Part shown: positions 3,151-63,919 of the stretch, in pieces | Layout: the number at the start of each line of letters is the position of its first letter | How positions within the stretch are numbered: position 1 is the stretch's first letter | Assembly: GCA_017134395.1 (NCBI GenBank) | Contig: CP070993.1 | Span: forward strand, 462,199 to 526,198 | Origin: Candidatus Kaiserbacteria bacterium | GTDB taxonomy: Bacteria > Patescibacteriota > Minisyncoccia > Phycocordibacterales > UBA2100 | Reading direction: 5' to 3' | DNA length: 64,000 bases | Position numbers and translations under genes: made by a program | Notes under the pieces: model-generated | Database searches by the model: none | The model's input: the letters and a program-made list of their open reading frames with translations, nothing else | What the model was told of the DNA's origin: nothing

Positions 3151-3537
3151 TTACTTTACATTATTTATTACTTTTTTTAATTTATCTTCAATTTCTTGAG
3201 CGATGCTTTGTAAGTCTTCGCTTTCTACCATAGACATAGCAACTGTTGGTAAAATAGAAGAAACGAAAACCTCGTCGTCCTTCTCGTACACAATAACATT
3301 ACATGGTAAAAGCAGTCCTATTTCTTGTTCTGCTTGCAAGGCTGTGTGAGCAAATGGTGGATTACACGCACCTAAAATTATGTAATTACCAAAATCAACA
3401 CCCAGCTTCTTTTTCAGAGTACCTTTTACATCAATTGTAGTTAATACACCGAAGCCTTCTGCTGATAGTTCCTCCGTTGTTTTTTCGACCGTTTTCTCGA
3501 AGTTTAGTGTTGATTTTTTCGTATATCCGTATGACAT
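3151..3537 (-). CDS. DUF302 domain protein.
   Basis: About 128 aa; the sequence pattern and its location beside a heavy-metal ATPase fit DUF302. Confidence 0.45.
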   Translation of the reverse strand: MSYGYTKKSTLNFEKTVEKTTEELSAEGFGVLTTIDVKGTLKKKLGVDFGNYIILGACNPPFAHTALQAEQEIGLLLPCNVIVYEKDDEVFVSSILPTVAMSMVESEDLQSIAQEIEDKLKKVINNVK

Positions 3538-3543
3538 AGTAAT

Positions 3544-5553
3544 TTATTGTAAGTTAATTTTTTTAAGCGTCATTGCGTTGACTACAACAATAACAGTTGA
3601 AAGACTCATGACCAAAGCTCCTATCTCAGGTCTTAAAAAGAATCCCCAAACAGCAAATACTCCAGCGGCGGCCGGAATAGCGATTATGTTGTACCCAAGC
3701 GCCCATACAAGATTTTGTATCATTTTTGAGTACACCTTTTTAGACAGTGTAATGAGACGAGCAATGTCACTTGGGTCATTGTCCATTAAAACAACATCGC
3801 CAGATTCAACCGCGACATCTGTTCCTGCACCAATTGCTACTCCGGCATTTGCTTGTGTAAGTGCAGGAGCATCGTTTACCCCATCACCAACCATGAGAAC
3901 AATATTTCCCTGTTCTTGGAGATCCTTTATGTGCGTATATTTGTCCTCTGGTAACACATTCGCAAAGTAGGTATCAATTCCCAACTCATCCGATACAGCT
4001 TTCGCCACCTGCTCATTATCTCCTGTAAGCATTGCAACTTTTACCTCCATATCGTGCAGCGCTTTTATTGCTGTGTACGATTCTTTTTTTATTGCATCTG
4101 CGAGAACAATGTAACCGAGTAGTTCTTTTTTATTAGCGACAAATACTATCGTCCCATTAATAGCGTTCGGTGATTCATGGTCAAACTGCAAACTCTTAAT
4201 TAGTCTCTCATTTCCAGCAAAATACTCTTCACCGTGTACCTTTGCTGTAATTCCCTGTCCTGCGATGTTCCGGAAATCAGAGATTTCCGATAATGCAATA
4301 TTTTTCTCCTTTGCATGAGCTACTATTGCATGTCCAATGATGTGAGAAGAATGTTGCTCTAGAGAAGCAGCAATTTCAATAATCCTGTTTTTATCTGATT
4401 CCTCCTTTGAAACTATTTCTGTCACACCAAACTCTCCTCTTGTCAGCGTTCCTGTCTTATCGAACACAACATAATCTGTTTTTCGAATAACCTCTATTTT
4501 AGAGAGGTCTTTGATAAAAAATCCATTCTTAACTGCAAGTGATGTCGTGATTGTTGTAACAGTTGGAATAGCGAGACCAAGTGCGTGCGGACATGCAATC
4601 ACTAACACTGTAATTGCGAGAGTGATGGCGAATACAAACGTTTCTCCCATGATAAGAGTCCAGACCAGTAGTGTAAGAAGTGCGGTTATTCCTGCAACAA
4701 ACGTCAATATAGCTGAAGCTTTATCAGCAATTTTTTGTGATCGTGGCTTTGTTCTTCCGGCTTCTTCTATTAACTTTTGAATTTGTCCGACGGTCGAATG
4801 CTCTCCGACACGAACAAGCTCTATTGTCAGTGCTCCATCTAAACAAATCGAACCTGCCACTACTTCATCGCCTTCGTGTTTTTCTATTGGTTTTGATTCT
4901 CCACTAATAAGTGACTCATCTACGTTAGCCGACCCAGTGATTAGTATTCCGTCAGCAGGAATTTTTTCTCCTGGTTTTACAATAACTACATCTTTCTCTT
5001 GTAACTCAGCTATATCAACATCAATTTCTTTCCCATCTACAAGTTTGTGAGCTTGTTTCGGTAACAATTTAGCAACTTCTTGCAGGGCATTTCCCGCAGC
5101 TCCGCTCGATTTTGCTTCTAGATAATGACCAAACAAAAGCACCCAAACCAGCGTTGAAATTTCAAGATAAAATTCAACCTCAAGAACTACGATAAACGTA
5201 GAGGCGACAGAAAATAAGTACCCTGCGCCAACAGCAAGTGATACGAGAGTCATCATGCCGTACTGTCTCGCTTTTATCTCATGCCACGCGTGTTTGAAAA
5301 ACACCAGCGCAAATCCAAAAATAATAGTAGCGATAATAAATTGAATCCACTTCCCTAATCCCAGCTCTCCGATACCGAGCAAACCAGCAATAAACTCATT
5401 GGTAAGAGCTAATGGAAGTAATAAGAAAGTAACAATCCAGAACCTTTTTAGGTAAGAACTCGCTGACCCATGATCCATTCCATGTCCGCCATGACTCGCA
5501 TGTGAAGAACTTTTCTCTTTGTGGTTAATGTGTGAAGAGTGATCCATACGCAT
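3544..5553 (-). CDS. Heavy-metal (copper) translocating P1B-type ATPase with His-rich N-terminus, CopB-like CPH motif.
   Basis: DKTGTLT phosphorylation motif, GDGVNDAPAL hinge, intramembrane CPH (IACPHALG), N-terminal HxxH-rich tail. Confidence 0.85.
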   Translation of the reverse strand: MRMDHSSHINHKEKSSSHASHGGHGMDHGSASSYLKRFWIVTFLLLPLALTNEFIAGLLGIGELGLGKWIQFIIATIIFGFALVFFKHAWHEIKARQYGMMTLVSLAVGAGYLFSVASTFIVVLEVEFYLEISTLVWVLLFGHYLEAKSSGAAGNALQEVAKLLPKQAHKLVDGKEIDVDIAELQEKDVVIVKPGEKIPADGILITGSANVDESLISGESKPIEKHEGDEVVAGSICLDGALTIELVRVGEHSTVGQIQKLIEEAGRTKPRSQKIADKASAILTFVAGITALLTLLVWTLIMGETFVFAITLAITVLVIACPHALGLAIPTVTTITTSLAVKNGFFIKDLSKIEVIRKTDYVVFDKTGTLTRGEFGVTEIVSKEESDKNRIIEIAASLEQHSSHIIGHAIVAHAKEKNIALSEISDFRNIAGQGITAKVHGEEYFAGNERLIKSLQFDHESPNAINGTIVFVANKKELLGYIVLADAIKKESYTAIKALHDMEVKVAMLTGDNEQVAKAVSDELGIDTYFANVLPEDKYTHIKDLQEQGNIVLMVGDGVNDAPALTQANAGVAIGAGTDVAVESGDVVLMDNDPSDIARLITLSKKVYSKMIQNLVWALGYNIIAIPAAAGVFAVWGFFLRPEIGALVMSLSTVIVVVNAMTLKKINLQ

Positions 5554-10662: not shown

Positions 10663-10697
10663 AAAGGTAATTAAAAAACCGCCCAATTGGGCGGTTT

Positions 10698-10961
10698 TTA
10701 TGCTACGTTTGCAACATCACGAGCAATCTTAGCTTTCTTTCGTGATGCGTTGTTTTTCTTTATAATTCCGCGTTTTGCTGCCTTATCAATTGCTTTGTAT
10801 GCCTTTGGAAGAAGCTCCTCGGCGGTCTTTTTTTCTTTTTTACCAACAAGAGTAGCAATTTCTTTCATTGCCTCTTTCATAGCGCGAAGACGACGTACGT
10901 TGAAAACACGACGGGCTTCCGCTTGTATAACTGACTTCTTTCCTGATTTCGATGTTGCCAT
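10698..10961 (-). CDS. rpsT: 30S ribosomal protein S20.
   Basis: 87-aa basic protein with the S20-like layout (MATSKSGKKS...AEARRVFN...). Confidence 0.8.
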   Translation of the reverse strand: MATSKSGKKSVIQAEARRVFNVRRLRAMKEAMKEIATLVGKKEKKTAEELLPKAYKAIDKAAKRGIIKKNNASRKKAKIARDVANVA

Positions 10962-19501: not shown

Positions 19502-20350
19502 TTACCTTGGATCTATCTCTAATTCCTCCTCTTGCAAAAGTCCGCTTTCAGATTCGCATGTGAGTCTAAAAATAGTATCCCGTAGAATTGCTGGTGTTTT
19601 TACTTGCCCCTCTATTCCCCGGCGCGTGAACCCTAGGTGTGTATCTGATGTTAACAAGCATGAGTTAACATCTGTCGTTGTCCAACTGAGCACGATTGAG
19701 TCGCCACGATCAATAGACAATGAATCAGCAGAGAACGTCAGTACTGGTTCTGCAACATTCACTACACAACTTGCGGTTGTATCAGCTACGTCAACCAAAT
19801 CATTTACACATTCTATCGTGTAGGTTGTATCCTCAGTAGGTTGAACCCGTACTGTACCGATTGTCTCACCAACACTATCAAAATTCTCACTTACCGTAGT
19901 GTACGCTCCATCACGACATGCCCACATGATGATTGTTTCTTCCGAGACCCCAATGATAGGCGGTATACAAATGAGGGTTACTCCACGCGTAGCGAGTGGC
20001 CCTGTGCCAACTTGATTTGTTTGTGTTGTCTGACCTGATTGGATTCCGACATTTGCAGATGGCGTATTGATATTAGTCTGAGTTGACGCTGAATTAAATG
20101 GGTCGTCACTTATATTAGAAAAGTATGCATCAGCATCATTTACATAATCACCAGTTACGTTTGTATTCGAATTTGTGTTACTTCCTGTTTGGATGCCAAG
20201 AAATGATGCGATGGAATCAAACGCGCCTGCTGTTTGCTGTTGCCCTCCAGAAGAAACAGTTTCTAAATTCTTGTATTCAGAGAAAGAGAAAGCGACCACA
20301 AAAACAAAGAGTAATGCAAGCGCTTTTATTTGAGTATGAGGAATATTCAT
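19502..20350 (-). CDS. Secreted protein with two Ig-like repeats related to those in 14822..16819.
   Basis: Start moved to the ATG at 20350 (MNIPHTQIKALALLFVFVVAF); same repeat-module pattern as the neighbouring gene. Confidence 0.5.
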   Translation of the reverse strand: MNIPHTQIKALALLFVFVVAFSFSEYKNLETVSSGGQQQTAGAFDSIASFLGIQTGSNTNSNTNVTGDYVNDADAYFSNISDDPFNSASTQTNINTPSANVGIQSGQTTQTNQVGTGPLATRGVTLICIPPIIGVSEETIIMWACRDGAYTTVSENFDSVGETIGTVRVQPTEDTTYTIECVNDLVDVADTTASCVVNVAEPVLTFSADSLSIDRGDSIVLSWTTTDVNSCLLTSDTHLGFTRRGIEGQVKTPAILRDTIFRLTCESESGLLQEEELEIDPR

Positions 20351-20442
20351 AGGTGCAAAATCGGCCTTAGTATTTTCAATGATACGGGACGTACACCATT
20401 GTCGCAATTCGCCTTGTGCACACCAAGACACCGTTACTTTCC

Positions 20443-20478
20443 TTCTAAAATATATCAGTTAACTGATATATTTTAGAA
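20443..20478. repeat. 36-bp perfect AT-rich palindrome with core ATATATCAGTT|AACTGATATAT.
   Basis: ttctaaaatatatcagtt|aactgatatattttagaa; the same core recurs at 62148-62189. Confidence 0.8.
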
Positions 20479-20510: not shown

Positions 20511-21230
20511 CTACAACGTGAGAATAAACCGCTCGAGCTCAATTTCTAAGGCAACTCCGTTTCTACGTGCGTGCTGTGGTAATAAAGCTAACGCTTTCAG
20601 ATGCCCTTCCACTACTTCAACCGAAGAAAAATTTTTCAGGGAGCTCTTTGCTTTAGTAAACGGGTATGGCTTCATACCAACTTCATCTGGAGTTTTTGCA
20701 CTTGACGCAAGCACGAGGCTTTTCAACATCCAAAATAAAATTCCATGAATTTCCTCATCACTTACACCGCTATTTTTTGCCTCTCGAAATAAACTCCATA
20801 GTTTCTTAACATTTCTCTCACCAAGTGCGTCAGTAAGTGAGAATGTGTTAAAAGTTGGCTTTTTTGTAGGAACTGTTTCTTTAAACTCATGGGTTTTTAC
20901 CGCATGTTTCTCGAGCTTCTTTTTAATGGGGGCAGTCAAAGCTGCATCTAATACAAAAAATGGGTGTGGAGCTTCTGCGATTTTCTCAAGATTTTGCAAT
21001 ACAATCTCTTCTCCTTCTTTGGTACTAAAGAGCGTGTCGAGAACAACGACGTATTCATTCTTGAACAGAGCCTGACTACCAGTTAATTCATCAAAATTAT
21101 AGCCATGTACATCGTCCACTGTTATACGAAAGTAAAGTGCGTCTGGACTTTTAGCGAGCATGCTCGCAACAGTCGCCTGAACTTTTGCCCTCGCCGCATC
21201 TACATCTTTACCGTAGTAAACGTACAACAT
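20511..21230 (-). CDS. DNA polymerase III delta subunit (HolA)-like.
   Basis: Size, N-terminal pattern and position immediately upstream of polA; weak similarity only. Confidence 0.45.
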   Translation of the reverse strand: MLYVYYGKDVDAARAKVQATVASMLAKSPDALYFRITVDDVHGYNFDELTGSQALFKNEYVVVLDTLFSTKEGEEIVLQNLEKIAEAPHPFFVLDAALTAPIKKKLEKHAVKTHEFKETVPTKKPTFNTFSLTDALGERNVKKLWSLFREAKNSGVSDEEIHGILFWMLKSLVLASSAKTPDEVGMKPYPFTKAKSSLKNFSSVEVVEGHLKALALLPQHARRNGVALEIELERFILTL

Positions 21231-30785: not shown

Positions 30786-31331
30786 TTATTGTGTAACCAT
30801 ATATTCCTGTAACTTTTTGATGCCGCGGTTTATTCGCACCGATACTGTATTCTCATTCTCGTTCAAAACTTCAGCAATCTCTTTTGGTTGCAATCCATCC
30901 ATAAAACGCATAACGACAACACTCCGATAACTGTCTGGTAACTGCGTAAGGGCACGAGCAAGCTCTTGCGATTGGAGTCCTATCTCTAATTTCTCAATTT
31001 CTTCTTCTAAACTTCCCGTTTGCAATCCCTCAAAATTTCCCTCTGTTACTCCCTCTTGTTCGAGAAGTGCATCAAGTGAAGAACTTTTTTTCTTTCGGTA
31101 CTCGTCAATTATGAGATTGTTGAGCACGCGAAACAAAAACGCTTTATAGTTTTGTATTTCTTTACCGTTTGAAGCTGCATCCCACGTTTTCATAAACGTT
31201 TCTTGTGTGAGCTCGAGAGCTCTCTCGCGATTCGACACACGGAAAGAGCAGTGCCTAAATAGCCCATCTGAATGCTCTTCATATGCTTGTGTGAATGCTT
31301 TTTCCACGTCCATTGGTGTGTATAGTATCAA
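30786..31331 (-). CDS. ECF-type RNA polymerase sigma-70 family factor.
   Basis: Region 2 (ETFMKTWD) and region 4 HTH (LQPKEIAEVLNENENTVSVRINRG). Confidence 0.8.
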   Translation of the reverse strand: MILYTPMDVEKAFTQAYEEHSDGLFRHCSFRVSNRERALELTQETFMKTWDAASNGKEIQNYKAFLFRVLNNLIIDEYRKKKSSSLDALLEQEGVTEGNFEGLQTGSLEEEIEKLEIGLQSQELARALTQLPDSYRSVVVMRFMDGLQPKEIAEVLNENENTVSVRINRGIKKLQEYMVTQ

Positions 31332-31424
31332 AGACGCACCAGATGCGCCTTTCTTTCATATTTAAATCTTAAACAAAGAATACACTTGGCCAAGAATAGT
31401 CTTTCAGATCCTTCTTTTCTTTAC

Positions 31425-31448
31425 ATATTAGCGATTAATCGCTAATAT
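31425..31448. promoter_or_regulatory. 24-bp perfect palindrome ATATTAGCGATTAATCGCTAATAT in the divergent promoter region between the ECF sigma gene and the TrpR/YerC-like gene; candidate operator.
   Basis: Exact inverted repeat ending 8 bp before the start codon at 31456; a second copy lies at 31974-31995. Confidence 0.6.
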
Positions 31449-31455
31449 TTTATAC

Positions 31456-31887
31456 ATGGTTCATATTTCCAAAAACAAAGTCGCTAGTCCCGTCCAAGAA
31501 AAATTGTTTAAAGAGCTCGCTGATCTGTTCGTTGCAAATACAAGCGCAACTGGCTTTTCGAAATTGCTTTTTGAGCTTCTCTCCAAAACAGAGCGGATTA
31601 TGCTCGCGAAGCGAGTTGGCATCATAGGTGCACTGCTCAATGAATACTCGGCATACGAAATTAGTCAGCTATTTAAAGTCAGTACATCTACGGTTATTCG
31701 TATTGAAACGCAAATGCAGCAAGGGAAATTTGACTACATAACGAGCATATTTAAAAAGAAGAAAGCGCGTGCAAGTTTCCTACATATTTTGGAAACAATG
31801 GTGACACTTGGTTTTCCTGGTGTAGCAAATAAGCGTGTGCGCGCTAAGGTACAGCGAGACATGCATGCGTGGAAAGCGGGTGGATAA
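31456..31887 (+). CDS. TrpR/YerC/YecD-like small DNA-binding protein.
   Basis: 143 aa; the helix-turn-helix region (ISQLFKVSTSTVIRIE) and overall pattern resemble the Trp-repressor-like YerC family. Confidence 0.5.
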   Translation: MVHISKNKVASPVQEKLFKELADLFVANTSATGFSKLLFELLSKTERIMLAKRVGIIGALLNEYSAYEISQLFKVSTSTVIRIETQMQQGKFDYITSIFKKKKARASFLHILETMVTLGFPGVANKRVRAKVQRDMHAWKAGG

Positions 31888-31973
31888 TAACACTAACCCC
31901 GCACAACTAGCACTGCACAGTGACTACACACTTCTCTAAACCTATAATTTGCTACCTGATTTGTATTTGTAGT

Positions 31974-31995
31974 TTTTAGCGATTAATCGCTAAAA
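31974..31995. promoter_or_regulatory. Second perfect copy of the palindrome TTTTAGCGATTAATCGCTAAAA, about 87 bp after the TrpR-like stop and about 180 bp upstream of yebC.
   Basis: Exact inverted repeat sharing the TTAGCGATTAATCGCTAA core with 31425-31448. Confidence 0.6.
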
Positions 31996-32172
31996 TTCAG
32001 CATTGTAAATCAAAAGAGGAGAGAAGGGGGTTGAAAAAGAGGAAATAGGGGTGGTGCTTCCTGTTGCTGCTTTTTTATTTACGGTATAGTGCTGCGTTGT
32101 TTGTGTCCTGCTGATTGTACAAGGTGTGAATTTCTTTCAAACTATCTCGTAATATTGTAAAATCACCATACT

Positions 32173-32709
32173 ATGTCAGGACACAATAAATGGTCAAAAA
32201 TAAAGCACAAAAAAGCGGCTACTGATGCTGCAAAGAGTAAGGTATTCGGCAAAATGGCAAAACTCATAGCCATAGAGTCGAAAAAAGCAAATGGCGACAT
32301 AACGTCACCTGGATTGCGCGCTGCAATAGAATCAGCAAAGGGAGTAAGTATGCCAAAGGACAATATAGATCGTGCAGTTGCAAAGGGATCTTCTGAAGAA
32401 ACTGCGGCATTGGAATCTATCTTGTACGAGATGTACGGACCAGGTGGAACTGCAGTACTTATTGATATTCTTACTGACAACCGAAACCGCACGGCAGCAG
32501 AAATTCGCCACTTACTTTCAAAACTGGGTGGGTACGAACTCGCAACTCCAGGAAGCGCCGCATGGGCCTTCACAAAGCAAGCCGAAGGAGGATACGAAGC
32601 AAACAGCACTGTTGAAATTTCAGACGAAGATGGTGAAAAACTTGAAGCTCTCATGGAGGCTCTTGATGAACAAGAAGACGTCCAAGACGTTTACACAAAC
32701 GCTGCATAA
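32173..32709 (+). CDS. yebC: YebC/PmpR-family probable transcriptional regulator (short form).
   Basis: N-terminal MSGHNKWSKIKHKKAATDAAKSK is signature YebC. Confidence 0.8.
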   Translation: MSGHNKWSKIKHKKAATDAAKSKVFGKMAKLIAIESKKANGDITSPGLRAAIESAKGVSMPKDNIDRAVAKGSSEETAALESILYEMYGPGGTAVLIDILTDNRNRTAAEIRHLLSKLGGYELATPGSAAWAFTKQAEGGYEANSTVEISDEDGEKLEALMEALDEQEDVQDVYTNAA

Positions 32710-37581: not shown

Positions 37582-38685
37582 CTACTTGTTCATTGGCATA
37601 ACAAGATAAATAAATGAGTTATCACTTACGCCTTTCACAATGAGTGGTTTTCCAAATCCTGCAAAAGACAAAGATACACTGTCAGTAGTGATTGATTGAA
37701 ATACATCTATAAGATATTTATGATTAAAGCTTATATCTAAGTCTTCTCCTGTTATAGCAGCGTCGAGGGAATCAAATATTTCACCAACATCGTTGTTTCT
37801 AGCACTAATAGTGAATGTCTTTTTTTGAGGGTACACATGAAGTGTAATTTGGCCAAATTTATCAGAGAATATTTGAGCTTTTTTTAGTGTATTTAAAAGA
37901 TCTTCTTTCAACACTACAACTTCTGTTGTTGTTTCTTTAGGAAGAATGCTTCTGTAGTCAGGAAAAGAGCCATCTATAATGCGAGAGGTTATATATAAAT
38001 CACCACTTTTAATCGAATATTGGTTTTCGTCAATAAATACCTCGAGGTCTTGGTTTTGTTGTGATTCTAAGATACGAACAAGTTCTGTAGTGTTTTTTAC
38101 AGGCATTATTGTAGTAGGTAGTTCTTCTTCTGTTTTATAGTGTACTTTTTTTTCAGCCAGGCGAAACGAGTCAGTGGCAACGAATACTAAATTTTCATCT
38201 TCATGGTACATGTATACACTAGCGAGCTCTGGTTTAATTAGTGAAGTTGATGCACTGTATAAAACACTCTTTACACCTTTAATGAGGCTTTCTTTAGGTA
38301 TTATGTGTTTATTTTTAGTTTCTGGTTTAGGAATTGTTGGGAAGTCATCTAGTGGGATTGTCTTAATTGTTGTTTTTGCACCACCTATTACCAACACTAT
38401 AGATCCTTCAATAAGTTCTAGTGATACTTTAGATTGTTGTGGTGATGTCTTTAAGGTTGAGTGTAGTATTTGAGCAGGAATTGCTACAGATCCTTCTATT
38501 TTTACATCTGCTGAGAATTTTATTTCAATACTTAATTCTAGATTTGTTGAGCGTATAGTTACATTCTTACCTTCTGCTTCAAACACCAAACATCTGAGCA
38601 CTGGGAGTGTTGCTGAATTAGACACCACTCTTGATGTGGTATCCACAGCCTCTTCAAGGTCTTTTTTTAAACATTCTAATTTCAT
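37582..38685 (-). CDS. dnaN: DNA polymerase III beta sliding clamp.
   Basis: 367 aa, three-domain clamp pattern, directly downstream of dnaA. Confidence 0.85.
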   Translation of the reverse strand: MKLECLKKDLEEAVDTTSRVVSNSATLPVLRCLVFEAEGKNVTIRSTNLELSIEIKFSADVKIEGSVAIPAQILHSTLKTSPQQSKVSLELIEGSIVLVIGGAKTTIKTIPLDDFPTIPKPETKNKHIIPKESLIKGVKSVLYSASTSLIKPELASVYMYHEDENLVFVATDSFRLAEKKVHYKTEEELPTTIMPVKNTTELVRILESQQNQDLEVFIDENQYSIKSGDLYITSRIIDGSFPDYRSILPKETTTEVVVLKEDLLNTLKKAQIFSDKFGQITLHVYPQKKTFTISARNNDVGEIFDSLDAAITGEDLDISFNHKYLIDVFQSITTDSVSLSFAGFGKPLIVKGVSDNSFIYLVMPMNK

Positions 38686-38932
38686 ACGTATTTTTTATTT
38701 TCCTCAACGTTTATATATTAGGACTGTGTGTATGTGGACAAAGGTATAAGTACCTAAAGTATTAAACACTTTTTAAATAAATACTCTGTGGGTTACTAGG
38801 TGAGAAACAAACAATAAGAGTGTTAACAACTAATACCTAAAAAATATTTTAAGATTTTTTGTGGACAACCTTTTAATAATTAACATAGTTATCAACACCA
38901 AATCCCAACATCTACACACAACTAATTAACAC

Positions 38933-40291
38933 CTAATTGTGTATAAGTGTACGGACATGATTAATTTCTTGGTCAAGAACAGTGTCAGTTTTGATTTCAT
39001 TTTTTATCTTCTCACATGAGTGAATAACAGTGGTGTGATCTCTCCCCCCTATTTTTTCTCCAATACTTGGGTATGAAATAGCAAAATCTTCTCGTAGTAT
39101 ATACATAATTACCTGTCGTGGGCGAACAACTTCTTTTTTTCTTGTTTTTTTGTAAATATTCTGCTCTTCAACTTCATAATATTCAGATATTTTTTTAACG
39201 ACCTCAGCAACCGAAATATTTTTATTCGGTTTACTAGTGTGTTTTACAACATTCTGGACTTCTAAAGAACTTAATTCCTTTCCTTTCAACTGCGTTTTAC
39301 AAATAAGGGTGTTAAGAAGACCCTCTAATTCTCGAATGTTTCCTGGTACTTCTTTTGATATATATTGAAGAACTTCTTCTGGAATATTAAAACTATGTTG
39401 TAGTGCTTTTTCACGTAATATTTCCATTCTCGATTCAATATCAGGATTTGGGATTTCAGCAATCATACCAGCGCTAAAACGCCCTTTTAATCGTTCTTCT
39501 AGACCAGGAAGGCTATTAGGATGTTTGTCTGATGAAAAGATTATTTGTTTATTGTTGTCGTACAATGCATTAAATAAATGGAACAACTCTTCTTGTGTAC
39601 GTTCTTTATCTGCGATGAACTGAATATCATCCATAATTAACACATCATATTGTCTATATTTATCTTTAAAATTATTACCTTTACCGATTTTCACCGCATT
39701 TATAAAATCCATAGTGAATCGCTCTGAGGTAACATAAAAAACCTTTCGGTTAGAATTTGTTTTTTTTAGGTAGTTCCCTATTGATTGAATAAGGTGGGTT
39801 TTTCCGTGACCGGTACCACCATAAATAAACAAAGGGTTGTAAGTAAGGCCAGGATTCTGCACAACAGCTTGAGCGGCTGCGTGAGCCAATTGGTTAAAAG
39901 GACCAACTACAAATGTATCAAATGTGTATCGAGGATTAAGATTATCTCGTTTATCAATAAACATATCCTGTAATAACAGTTGGTTTTGATTCTGGTTTGT
40001 ATTTTGCGCAGGACGCTGCTCACCCGAGGCACGCTTAGCTGCATTTTTTGTCACCATATATTCAACACCTCGGATAGAATCATCAAACCCACGGATGGTT
40101 TTTAGAATAAAGTTGTTGTGTTTTTCATACAACCAATCCTTTACAATTTTATTAGGAACTCCAATGTAGACTATGTTGTTATCATGTTTAATGATTGCCG
40201 TATCTTTAAACCATGTACGGAAACTAGCTTCAGAGATATTCATCTCTATATACACAAGTGTATTCTGCCAAAGTTCTTGATCGTTTAACAT
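38933..40291 (-). CDS. dnaA: Chromosomal replication initiator DnaA.
   Basis: AAA+ Walker A GGTGHGKTHL; C-terminal DnaA box-binding domain (...SYPSIGEKIGGRDHTTVIHSCEKI). Confidence 0.9.
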   Translation of the reverse strand: MLNDQELWQNTLVYIEMNISEASFRTWFKDTAIIKHDNNIVYIGVPNKIVKDWLYEKHNNFILKTIRGFDDSIRGVEYMVTKNAAKRASGEQRPAQNTNQNQNQLLLQDMFIDKRDNLNPRYTFDTFVVGPFNQLAHAAAQAVVQNPGLTYNPLFIYGGTGHGKTHLIQSIGNYLKKTNSNRKVFYVTSERFTMDFINAVKIGKGNNFKDKYRQYDVLIMDDIQFIADKERTQEELFHLFNALYDNNKQIIFSSDKHPNSLPGLEERLKGRFSAGMIAEIPNPDIESRMEILREKALQHSFNIPEEVLQYISKEVPGNIRELEGLLNTLICKTQLKGKELSSLEVQNVVKHTSKPNKNISVAEVVKKISEYYEVEEQNIYKKTRKKEVVRPRQVIMYILREDFAISYPSIGEKIGGRDHTTVIHSCEKIKNEIKTDTVLDQEINHVRTLIHN

Positions 40292-61780: not shown

Positions 61781-62074
61781 CTATCTGACGCTTTCTGCAC
61801 GGCGTTTTCTTGTGGCAACAGACCTCTTGTTGAAGTAACGCATAGCAACCAAGAGATACCAGCGATACTGGAAGAAAATAAACGAATATTTTCTAACAGC
61901 TTTTTCTACGAGGGCCTTAAATGCGGAACCCGTTTCACCTTTGCGGTGACTGTAGACTTCGTTGATAATGAGCTCTGCTTTCCCAACGTCAATCGTACAC
62001 AGGTAGTCTCTCTCGACTTCGGCAACAGCCTCTTTGAAGTAACTGTCATTTGTGTTAACAGTGAATGTAGACAC
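61781..62074 (-). CDS. Small hypothetical protein, first gene of the MazG/kinase/peptidase operon.
   Basis: 97-aa ORF in operon position; the C-terminal part is basic/hydrophobic and could be spurious. Confidence 0.3.
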   Translation of the reverse strand: MSTFTVNTNDSYFKEAVAEVERDYLCTIDVGKAELIINEVYSHRKGETGSAFKALVEKAVRKYSFIFFQYRWYLLVAMRYFNKRSVATRKRRAESVR

Positions 62075-62147
62075 AACGACCTCCTTTCTCCAAGTCTTTA
62101 AGGTACGACGCTAGTTTTGATTGTATACCCAGCACCTATCTAGTGTA

Positions 62148-62189
62148 AAGCCCAAGAATATATCAGTTAACTGATATATTCTTGGGCTT
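62148..62189. repeat. 42-bp perfect palindrome aagcccaagaatatatcagtt|aactgatatattcttgggctt, sharing a 22-bp core with 20443-20478.
   Basis: Exact inverted repeat; the GC-rich outer stem could also serve as the comM terminator. Confidence 0.8.
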
Positions 62190-62197
62190 TCTAAATT

Positions 62198-62215
62198 TTA
62201 GCGATTAGTCGCTAA
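62198..62215. promoter_or_regulatory. Degenerate third copy of the TTAGCGATTA-TCGCTAA palindrome (ttagcgattagtcgctaa).
   Basis: Two mismatches relative to the perfect copies flanking the TrpR-like gene. Confidence 0.45.
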
Positions 62216-63776: not shown

Positions 63777-63845
63777 GGTATGAGTATACCGTATTCAAAA
63801 CTAAGAAAGAGCAGAGTGTTTAAAACTTAGAATATATACAACAAA

Positions 63846-63887
63846 AATGAACACCTCATCCGCCAGCTGGCGGATGAGGTGTTCATT
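63846..63887 (-). terminator. Intrinsic terminator for the minus-strand gene that ends at 63920.
   Basis: Hairpin aatgaacacctcatccgcc-agct-ggcggatgaggtgttcatt with a T-run on the minus strand. Confidence 0.65.
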
Positions 63888-63919
63888 TTGGCTTCAGTAA
63901 GCCCTGTTTAGTGACCAAT

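Follow-up and report, generated by a model that had tools for sequence, protein, structure and literature searches.

The trp operator of Escherichia coli reads GTACTAGTTAACTAGTAC, and trpR, the gene for the Trp repressor (TrpR), is itself under autoregulation, its promoter containing an operator. Two similar operators a few hundred base pairs (bp) apart, one of them at the promoter, occur in the lac (O1-O2), gal (OE-OI) and deo systems, where looping has been shown by experiment and depends on tetramers or partner proteins. A gene bracketed by palindromic repeats, with solitary copies elsewhere, is the layout of the REP/RAYT systems (REPtrons), in which the RAYTs are HUH transposase-like enzymes accompanied by hundreds of REP copies. 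A further TrpR-family regulator, HisR, binds 20-bp palindromes that differ between lineages; HisR proteins are shorter than 100 amino acids (aa), control histidine genes and are found in Firmicutes and a few other phyla (PMC9413887). Here we analyse a locus of Candidatus Kaiserbacteria bacterium in which a gene for a 143-aa TrpR-like helix-turn-helix protein stands between two copies of a perfect palindrome, within a stretch of 64,000 nucleotides (nt) of contig CP070993.1 (assembly GCA_017134395.1, positions 462,199 to 526,198 of the forward strand), hereafter called the window. To our knowledge, gene regulation in the Patescibacteria (Candidate Phyla Radiation, CPR), the group to which this organism belongs, has hardly been studied experimentally. 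Comparison of the locus with its relatives leads us to read it as encoding a TrpR-type repressor that regulates itself, with an operator on either side of its gene and a small number of solitary sites, a reading that we consider probable.

The window protein shares its Pfam family and, over ~95 residues, its fold with E. coli TrpR (PDB 1TRO), and the predicted operators are similar to the trp operator in size and symmetry, with a TTAA centre. Sequence identity to TrpR is ~20%, however, and the window protein differs in its length (143 aa compared to 108), in its two extra C-terminal helices and in its locus, which features a second predicted operator past the stop codon, a predicted leaderless promoter and no trp or aro genes nearby. 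No trp or aro genes were found among the window neighbours checked by Pfam, and the neighbours in other loci look unrelated by inspection. By profile comparison the closest solved structures are those of the HisR/YerC group (Bacillus subtilis YerC; 3KOR, 3FRW and 3G1C), with which the window family also shares palindromes that are specific to lineages; in contrast to HisR/YerC, the family members are longer, their sites lie at the ends of their own gene and their context is unrelated to histidine genes. The pair of similar sites with one member at the promoter likewise resembles the lac, gal and deo arrangements, but looping is a proposal here and no helical phasing was detected in the spacing. 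The bracketed gene with solitary copies elsewhere resembles the REPtrons, although the gene in question encodes a TrpR-like helix-turn-helix protein and the 64 kb contain three copies of one palindrome (family 1) and two of another (family 2). On this evidence the protein would work in the manner of TrpR and HisR/YerC, the two closest systems. What sets the family apart is its length together with the C-terminal helices, its limitation so far to Patescibacteria, the bracketing operator pair and the predicted leaderless promoter. The subfamily and its bracketing layout appear to be undescribed, whereas family, autoregulation and type of operator each belong to a known kind. The original prediction, made by a model from the sequence of the window, had stated that operator and regulator are not a described pair, and this was borne out by our literature search, which returned no description of this regulator family or of the regulator-operator pair.

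Palindromes on both sides of the regulator gene

Exact copies of the 18-mer TTAGCGATTAATCGCTAA occupy 31428-31445 and 31976-31993, on either side of the regulator gene, within two longer perfect palindromes that we refer to as O1 and O2 (Table 1), confirming the two perfect copies of the original prediction. The upstream site O1 is separated from the regulator ATG (31456) by 7 nt, and the downstream site O2 from the regulator stop codon (31887) by 86 nt; a further 177 nt lie between O2 and the yebC ATG (32173). The third family-1 copy had been described as carrying two mismatches, but in fact deviates from the 18-mer by one, located in its centre. When up to 3 mismatches are allowed, these three sites are the only matches to the 18-mer in the 64 kb, and shuffling of the sequence produced a mean of 0.02 matches at the same tolerance, with three matches reached in 0 of 100 shuffles. 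The core of the site reads CGATTAATCG. On the divergent side the regulator gene is flanked by genes for an extracytoplasmic function (ECF) sigma factor and a DUF5667 protein, and downstream by genes for YebC, RuvC, a class I tRNA synthetase, a penicillin-binding protein (PBP), DnaN and DnaA, in agreement with the neighbourhood given in the original prediction.

Table 1 Predicted elements of the window, palindromes of orthologous loci, and pairs of recognition helix and site core
Feature	Position	Strand	Description
Promoter of the regulator gene, sigma-70 type, predicted	31420-31448	+	TTTACA-17-TAATAT-7-ATG; scan score 9 of 12
Operator O1, predicted	31425-31448	none	24-bp perfect palindrome ATATTAGCGATTAATCGCTAATAT; covers the promoter spacer and the -10 box
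TrpR-like helix-turn-helix regulator gene	31456-31887	+	143 aa; assigned by Pfam, profile, AlphaFold2, Foldseek and hhalign
Operator O2, predicted	31974-31995	none	22-bp perfect palindrome TTTTAGCGATTAATCGCTAAAA; second site of the bracket
Solitary family-1 site	62198-62215	none	TTAGCGATTAGTCGCTAA; 6 nt after the comM terminator hairpin, 7 nt before the family-2 palindrome
Family-2 palindrome	62147-62190	none	44 bp, perfect, core TATCAGTTAACTGATA; terminator-like score
Family-2 palindrome	20443-20478	none	36 bp, perfect, same core TATCAGTTAACTGATA
Palindrome of L001	both sides of gene		CTTTCGATTAATCGAAAG
Palindrome of L009	both sides of gene		TTCTTTCGATTAATCGAAAGAA
Palindrome of L007	both sides of gene		TGTATCGATTAATCGATACA; four copies
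Palindrome of L010 (P0002)	both sides of gene		ATTCTATCGGTTAACCGATAGAAT; four copies
Helix STSTV			core CG[AG]TT/AA[TC]CG; 7/7 loci, among them L138, whose protein is just 35% identical to that of the window
Helix SPST or SSST, then R-F			core CGATA/TATCG; 10/10 loci
Helix STATV			core TATCAGTT/AAYTGATA; L135, and the same core around the paralogue in L203/L204

Four orthologues are found in one gene order, with the sigma and anti-sigma genes on one side and yebC-ruvC-tRNA synthetase-PBP-dnaN on the other, and a fifth close relative, P0002, has a different gene context. The five orthologous proteins are 46-57% identical, and each orthologous locus carries a perfect palindrome of its own sequence on both sides of the gene. 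A scan of metagenomes with a 16-sequence alignment yielded 71 further loci; dereplication left 52 loci, in which the 250 nt upstream of the gene were compared with the 450 nt downstream, using 143 genes of the same loci as controls. At least 12 identical nt are common to the upstream and downstream flanks in 41 of the 52 dereplicated loci, and a common stretch of at least 15 identical nt is present in 28 of the 37 loci with full flanks compared to 0 of the 143 control genes. The common sequence is a palindrome or near-palindrome in all loci that share one, and most loci have its upstream copy end 0-22 nt ahead of the start codon and its downstream copy begin 0-50 nt after the stop codon. Among the 38 measured loci, the palindrome centre lies 13.5-21.5 nt before the ATG in 24, and 25 combine a site centre 13.5-33.5 nt before the start codon with one 13.5-25.5 nt after the stop codon; the distance between the centres of O1 and O2 ranges from 424 to 736 bp among loci. 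As read from these flanks, the bracket is a property of the family and not of this genome alone. Linkage of site and gene in related genomes had been put forward as a test of the original prediction, and it is indeed kept in orthologues and distant relatives even though the sequence of the palindrome changes.

The two copies within a locus agree with each other, and the copies of different lineages differ. Matched copies per locus combined with differences between lineages form the pattern expected of a regulator and an operator evolving together. Moreover, particular recognition helices go along with particular site cores (Table 1), and other recognition helices pair with other palindromes. 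Such covariation of helix and site would not be easily explained by structure alone or by chance. The kept linkage and the tracking of the recognition helix by the site together indicate that the adjacent TrpR-like protein very likely uses the palindromes as its operators, in line with what had been proposed.

Fold, promoter and predicted autoregulation

The window protein is identical to NCBI JXR01_02585, a hypothetical protein of Candidatus Kaiserbacteria. It scores 29.3 bits with the Pfam model Trp_repressor (PF01371; cut-off 27), and the same model matches 50 of 50 tested family members at E up to 0.01 (best E 8.9e-14). With the NCBIfam equivalog model for TrpR (TIGR01321) the window protein reaches 23.5 bits, under the cut-off of 67.25, and 33 of the 50 members match, all of them under the equivalog cut-off (best E 1.5e-8). 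The NCBIfam model for YerC/YecD (TIGR02531) gave no match to the window protein at E up to 0.1 and matched 26 of the 50 members weakly, under threshold (best E 3e-7). A profile built from 50 relatives retrieved the solved structures 3KOR, 3FRW and 3G1C at E 1e-7 to 7e-6 and E. coli TrpR at ~0.01. The AlphaFold2 model of a single chain (pLDDT 87.8) features eight helices, and the extra C-terminal helices beyond the TrpR fold comprise residues 102-118 and 126-140. A Foldseek search of this model against the PDB returned TrpR or TrpR-like (YerC-type) chains for all of the top 29 matches, covering ~95 residues at a probability of 0.93-1.0 and a target-normalised TM-score of 0.61-0.82, with E-values that are weak (0.2 to 1.2). 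The window protein is a member of the Trp repressor superfamily and belongs to neither the TrpR nor the HisR/YerC named family; the TrpR/YerC-like label it had been given holds for PF01371 and the TrpR fold, but not for the named families, as the NCBIfam TrpR cut-off is not reached and the YerC/YecD model is not matched.

Alignment of the window protein with E. coli TrpR by hhalign (probability 90) pairs S43/T, R53, T79 and R82 with the TrpR pocket residues T44, R54, T81 and R84, and R53 and T79 are invariant in the 50-sequence family alignment. The conservation of pocket-equivalent residues suggests that the protein may be controlled by a small ligand. Members of the Trp repressor superfamily are intertwined homodimers that bind palindromic operators of ~18-20 bp. 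We predict a dimeric TrpR-type helix-turn-helix repressor, whose operator we read from the linked perfect palindromes of 18-24 bp. An exhaustive profile search collected 1463 clusters (50% identity) at E up to 1e-3, nearly all of the listed members being 130-150 aa long and family proteins overall mostly 129-150 aa, and all organism names seen with family members are those of Patescibacteria (CPR) groups; the subfamily is large and so far limited to Patescibacteria names. Searches of PHROGs and PADLOC gave no match to the window protein.

The predicted promoter of the regulator gene (Table 1) has a geometry that places the transcription start at the ATG, and a leaderless mRNA is therefore predicted. 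Of the 52 family loci, 24 have a TTGACA hexamer, with up to one mismatch, whose end is 29-34 nt upstream of the ATG (exact in 14), compared to 5 of 55 window genes (all long open reading frames, ORFs) with a -35 element at this spacing. A Shine-Dalgarno-like motif at -18 to -5 precedes 2 of the same 55 genes; one exception to its general absence is a 97-aa ORF with a GTG start at 62074, which has AAGGAGG in front. We further observed that the N-terminus of the regulator, M-[PV]-[HRN]-[VI]-S-[KR], is strongly conserved in 50 diverse members, M1 being invariant and S5 nearly so. Given a leaderless mRNA, the N-terminal constraint could act on the 5' end of the RNA besides the protein.

O1 fills the spacer between the -35 and -10 elements of this promoter. 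The palindrome of 18-24 bp with its TTAA centre is the predicted operator, and repressor bound to O1 would exclude RNA polymerase and thereby bring about negative autoregulation. An operator over the core promoter of its own gene is the standard arrangement for this kind of control, from which we infer that the regulator gene is very likely autoregulated, and the autoregulated repressor of the original prediction is retained.

Judged from its conservation, the feature is a real and conserved regulator module that is probably self-repressing. Its relevance extends beyond the window, as the family comprises 1463 clusters and the cognate site can be read from the flanks of the gene itself in most lineages. 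Dozens of natural protein-operator pairs could be used to work out a recognition code within the TrpR fold, and the rule of reading the flanks would make for simple regulon prediction in uncultivated genomes. Two operators around a single repressor gene pose a puzzle of design, and the predicted leaderless promoter, together with the near absence of Shine-Dalgarno motifs, bears on how translation starts in these organisms.

A second palindrome family and solitary sites

The third family-1 site lies between the comM stop codon (62247) and a minus-strand operon encoding the 97-aa ORF, a MazG-domain protein and an AAA_33 kinase-like protein; the comM hairpin scores as a terminator in our scan. 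Unnoticed by the original prediction, this site adjoins a palindrome of a second family, which shares 3 nt with the -35 hexamer of a promoter-like sequence on the minus strand, TTTACA-18-TACAAT (62149-62120). The other family-2 palindrome of the window is found between the stop codon of ORF 20511-21230 and the start codon of ORF 19502-20431, both on the minus strand. The 16-mer core common to the two is identical in both operators around a paralogue of the regulator in L203/L204, where GTGTATCAGTTAACTGATACAC stands on each side of the gene, and nearly identical in L135. The family-2 palindrome is probably the operator of a paralogous TrpR-like regulator encoded beyond the window. One marine genome harbours both branches (locus tags CL652_00565 and CL652_02930), which leads us to predict a second regulator elsewhere in the present genome; tblastn with six family proteins detected no paralogue within the window.

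A scan of genome contigs with the loosened pattern TTAGCGANNNNTCGCTAA gave at least 120 matches, mostly chance occurrences in unrelated phyla, and none of the matches listed encodes a member of the TrpR-like family. The same scan was the source of L130, a locus of Patescibacteria in which a family-2-like site stands next to an exact family-1 site (3351-3403), as in the window. L130 is syntenic with L135, gene for gene, over 8 kb. Between the genes for an MGMT-like protein and an M16 peptidase, L135 contains a gene for a 136-aa membrane protein and a bracketed paralogue (3491-4485), and L130 has at the same place only 257 bp (3281-3537), without the paralogue and the membrane protein gene. The difference has the appearance of genes having been lost or gained at the palindromes.

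All solitary sites are located within ~135 nt downstream of a stop codon (20443-20478 and 62147-62215 in the window, 2542-2561 in L007, 3272-3287 in L148 and 3351-3403 in L130), and further sites in the flanks of relatives were seen in L148 and L007 only. Solitary sites such as 62198-62215 may be further targets of the regulator, and some adjoin the operator of the paralogue. With three copies in 64 kb and a gene order that is kept in the four orthologous loci, the family-1 palindrome does not have the properties of an insertion sequence.

Role of the downstream site and competing explanations

The gene that follows the regulator varies by subfamily and is convergent in 19 dereplicated loci, most of which keep a common downstream copy of at least 15 nt. 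As the copy is kept whatever gene follows, convergent ones included, O2 belongs to the regulator and not to yebC. On the molecular level, O2 would most likely raise the occupancy of O1 by protein-mediated looping, in which the extra C-terminal helices possibly take part. Other possible roles of O2 are those of a protein roadblock or of a hairpin at which the transcript ends, and that of a shield of the gene against convergent transcription. An antisense promoter at O2 was considered and rejected, its geometry being unfit and the promoter scan having found none there.

The original prediction had envisaged a regulon of neighbouring housekeeping genes, in which O2 would control yebC-ruvC, O1 the ECF sigma/anti-sigma pair and the third copy the MazG/kinase operon; we consider such a regulon unlikely. 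It is true that the downstream copy of the Kaiserbacteria-like clade sits between the regulator and yebC, and that GTGACT-17-TATAAT at 31920-31948 would put O2 at ~+20 to +40 in a transcript that continues into yebC. Nevertheless, the downstream copy is kept near the regulator stop codon also where the next gene is unrelated or convergent, the distance from the O2-like copy to the yebC start varies between 47 and 177 nt among four orthologues, and yebC has a promoter-like site of its own (TTCAAA-16-TAAAAT), which ends 9 nt before the ATG without overlapping O2, all of which argues against yebC as a specific target. The ECF sigma pair is linked to the regulator in the Kaiserbacteria-like clade, and in L007 two of the four copies (2542-2561, 4201-4222, 4272-4297 and 4806-4825) occupy the divergent region and the fourth lies 3 nt past the anti-sigma stop codon, so that the sigma operon there is bracketed too. 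The linkage is confined to that clade, however, and O1, the single copy between the regulator and the sigma gene in the window, is at least 94 nt from the start of the sigma gene. As for the MazG/kinase operon, the third site is centred ~93 nt upstream of the predicted transcription start of the nearest promoter-like site, which is not a typical position for a repressor and speaks against this target. Another possibility, which we regard as doubtful, is that the palindromes serve mainly as nucleic-acid structures, either RNA hairpins (terminator or stabiliser) or DNA cruciforms, and that the protein, bound to them at gene ends, works as a roadblock or terminator-insulator, with promoter repression being secondary. 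This would account for perfect palindromy far beyond the common core, with copy-specific outer arms of 34-48 bp, for the stability of the hairpins (O1 and O2 fold as RNA at -10.6 and -10.2 kcal/mol, and sites of relatives at -19.6 and -26.8 kcal/mol) and for the position of the solitary sites after stop codons, including those of L130 between convergent genes and the terminator-like 62147-62190. Structure alone, however, leaves the common core and its tracking of the recognition helix unexplained, the family-1 sites carry no T-run, with nothing called by the terminator scan at 31425-31448 or 31974-31995, and the upstream copy would be untranscribed given the spacing of the -35 element. Perfect palindromy is also a feature of ordinary terminators, as in 10674-10699 and 63844-63889, and a mutational habit that perfects palindromes may therefore be at work.

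The L130/L135 site fits poorly with a pure promoter-operator reading and thus keeps alive both the marking of gene ends and the idea that site-gene-site is a cassette, selfish or mobile, that recombination between the palindromes brings in or removes, leaving solitary sites as empty footprints. In favour of a cassette, L130 has solitary palindromes of the same family where L135 has the paralogue and the membrane protein gene, the bracket is tight (25/38 loci), genomic contexts differ widely between subfamilies, and 14 of 50 members show weak matches to IS630 transposases. These matches fall short of the threshold, though, and involve the helix-turn-helix region only, and no transposase or recombinase domain was detected above threshold in the window protein or the tested members. 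Furthermore, the neighbours are the same in the four orthologues, each genome showed one or two copies, and deletion between short direct repeats is ordinary gene loss that requires no dedicated mechanism, and we hold a cassette to be highly improbable. A role of the palindromes beyond that of operators, be it as gene-end marks (roadblock or terminator-insulator) or as recombination sites in very small genomes, seems quite unlikely to us, compatible though it is with the empty L130 site, the solitary sites shortly after stop codons and the excess length of the perfect palindromes. We thus favour the self-regulating repressor with two flanking operators, a reading that derives from comparative sequence analysis and against which several observations can be held. 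About one-fifth of the loci have no common flank sequence of at least 12 nt. Two convergent genes, a setting in which a promoter would not be expected, surround the solitary sites of L130, and the centre of 62198-62215 is remote from the nearest predicted transcription start, which is atypical for a repressor. The spacing between O1 and O2 shows no robust helical phasing, the sole nominal signal (p 0.005 at a period of 11.2) coming from non-independent loci with a common 468-bp spacing, and looping consequently lacks positive support. Many palindromes stay perfect far past the common core and reach up to 48 bp, the outer arms of the two copies in a locus being different; a dimer operator needs no such extension, which hints at either selection for a hairpin or cruciform or mutation that perfects palindromes. 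Finally, the counts of family-1 and family-2 sites cover the 64-kb window of a 687,746-bp contig, and any estimate of regulon size is to be read within that range.

A number of smaller observations concern the palindromes and their surroundings. Terminator-like hairpins that are perfect through the loop were seen at 10674-10699, 63844-63889 and 289-330 of the window and at 6379-6410 of L007, an example being AAAAACCGCCCAATTGGGCGGTTTTT; this is an uncommon trait that may stem from the mutational habit mentioned above. Rfam gave 0 matches to 31000-32400 at E up to 1. A likeness of the sites to KorA/KorB-like operators (TTTAGC...GCTAAA) was taken as coincidence, since the palindromes of the orthologues carry different flanks. 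The imperfect palindrome AAAGAATACACTTGGCCAAGAATAGTCTTT at 31375-31404, between the ECF sigma gene and O1, may be part of the sigma gene promoter. The YebC homologue (32173-32709) is short, with 178 aa here and 176 aa in L001, L007 and L009, and its best match covers approximately positions 1-137 of the 245-position NCBIfam model, which may mean that the clade has a truncated YebC. At 6-8 kb past the regulator come dnaN and dnaA (37582-40291), G+C content drops to 0.36 between 36 and 42 kb, and the fall of the cumulative GC skew ends, at its lowest value, near 32 kb, which suggests that the replication origin is probably close; the palindromes as an element of that origin were set aside, the bracketed gene occurring in many unrelated gene contexts. 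Among the matches of the contig scan, TTAGCGA-N4-TCGCTAA (centres ATTT, AAAT and ATAT; L012-L131) was found in many Saprospiraceae, in Lewinella and in other Bacteroidota, above a random spread.

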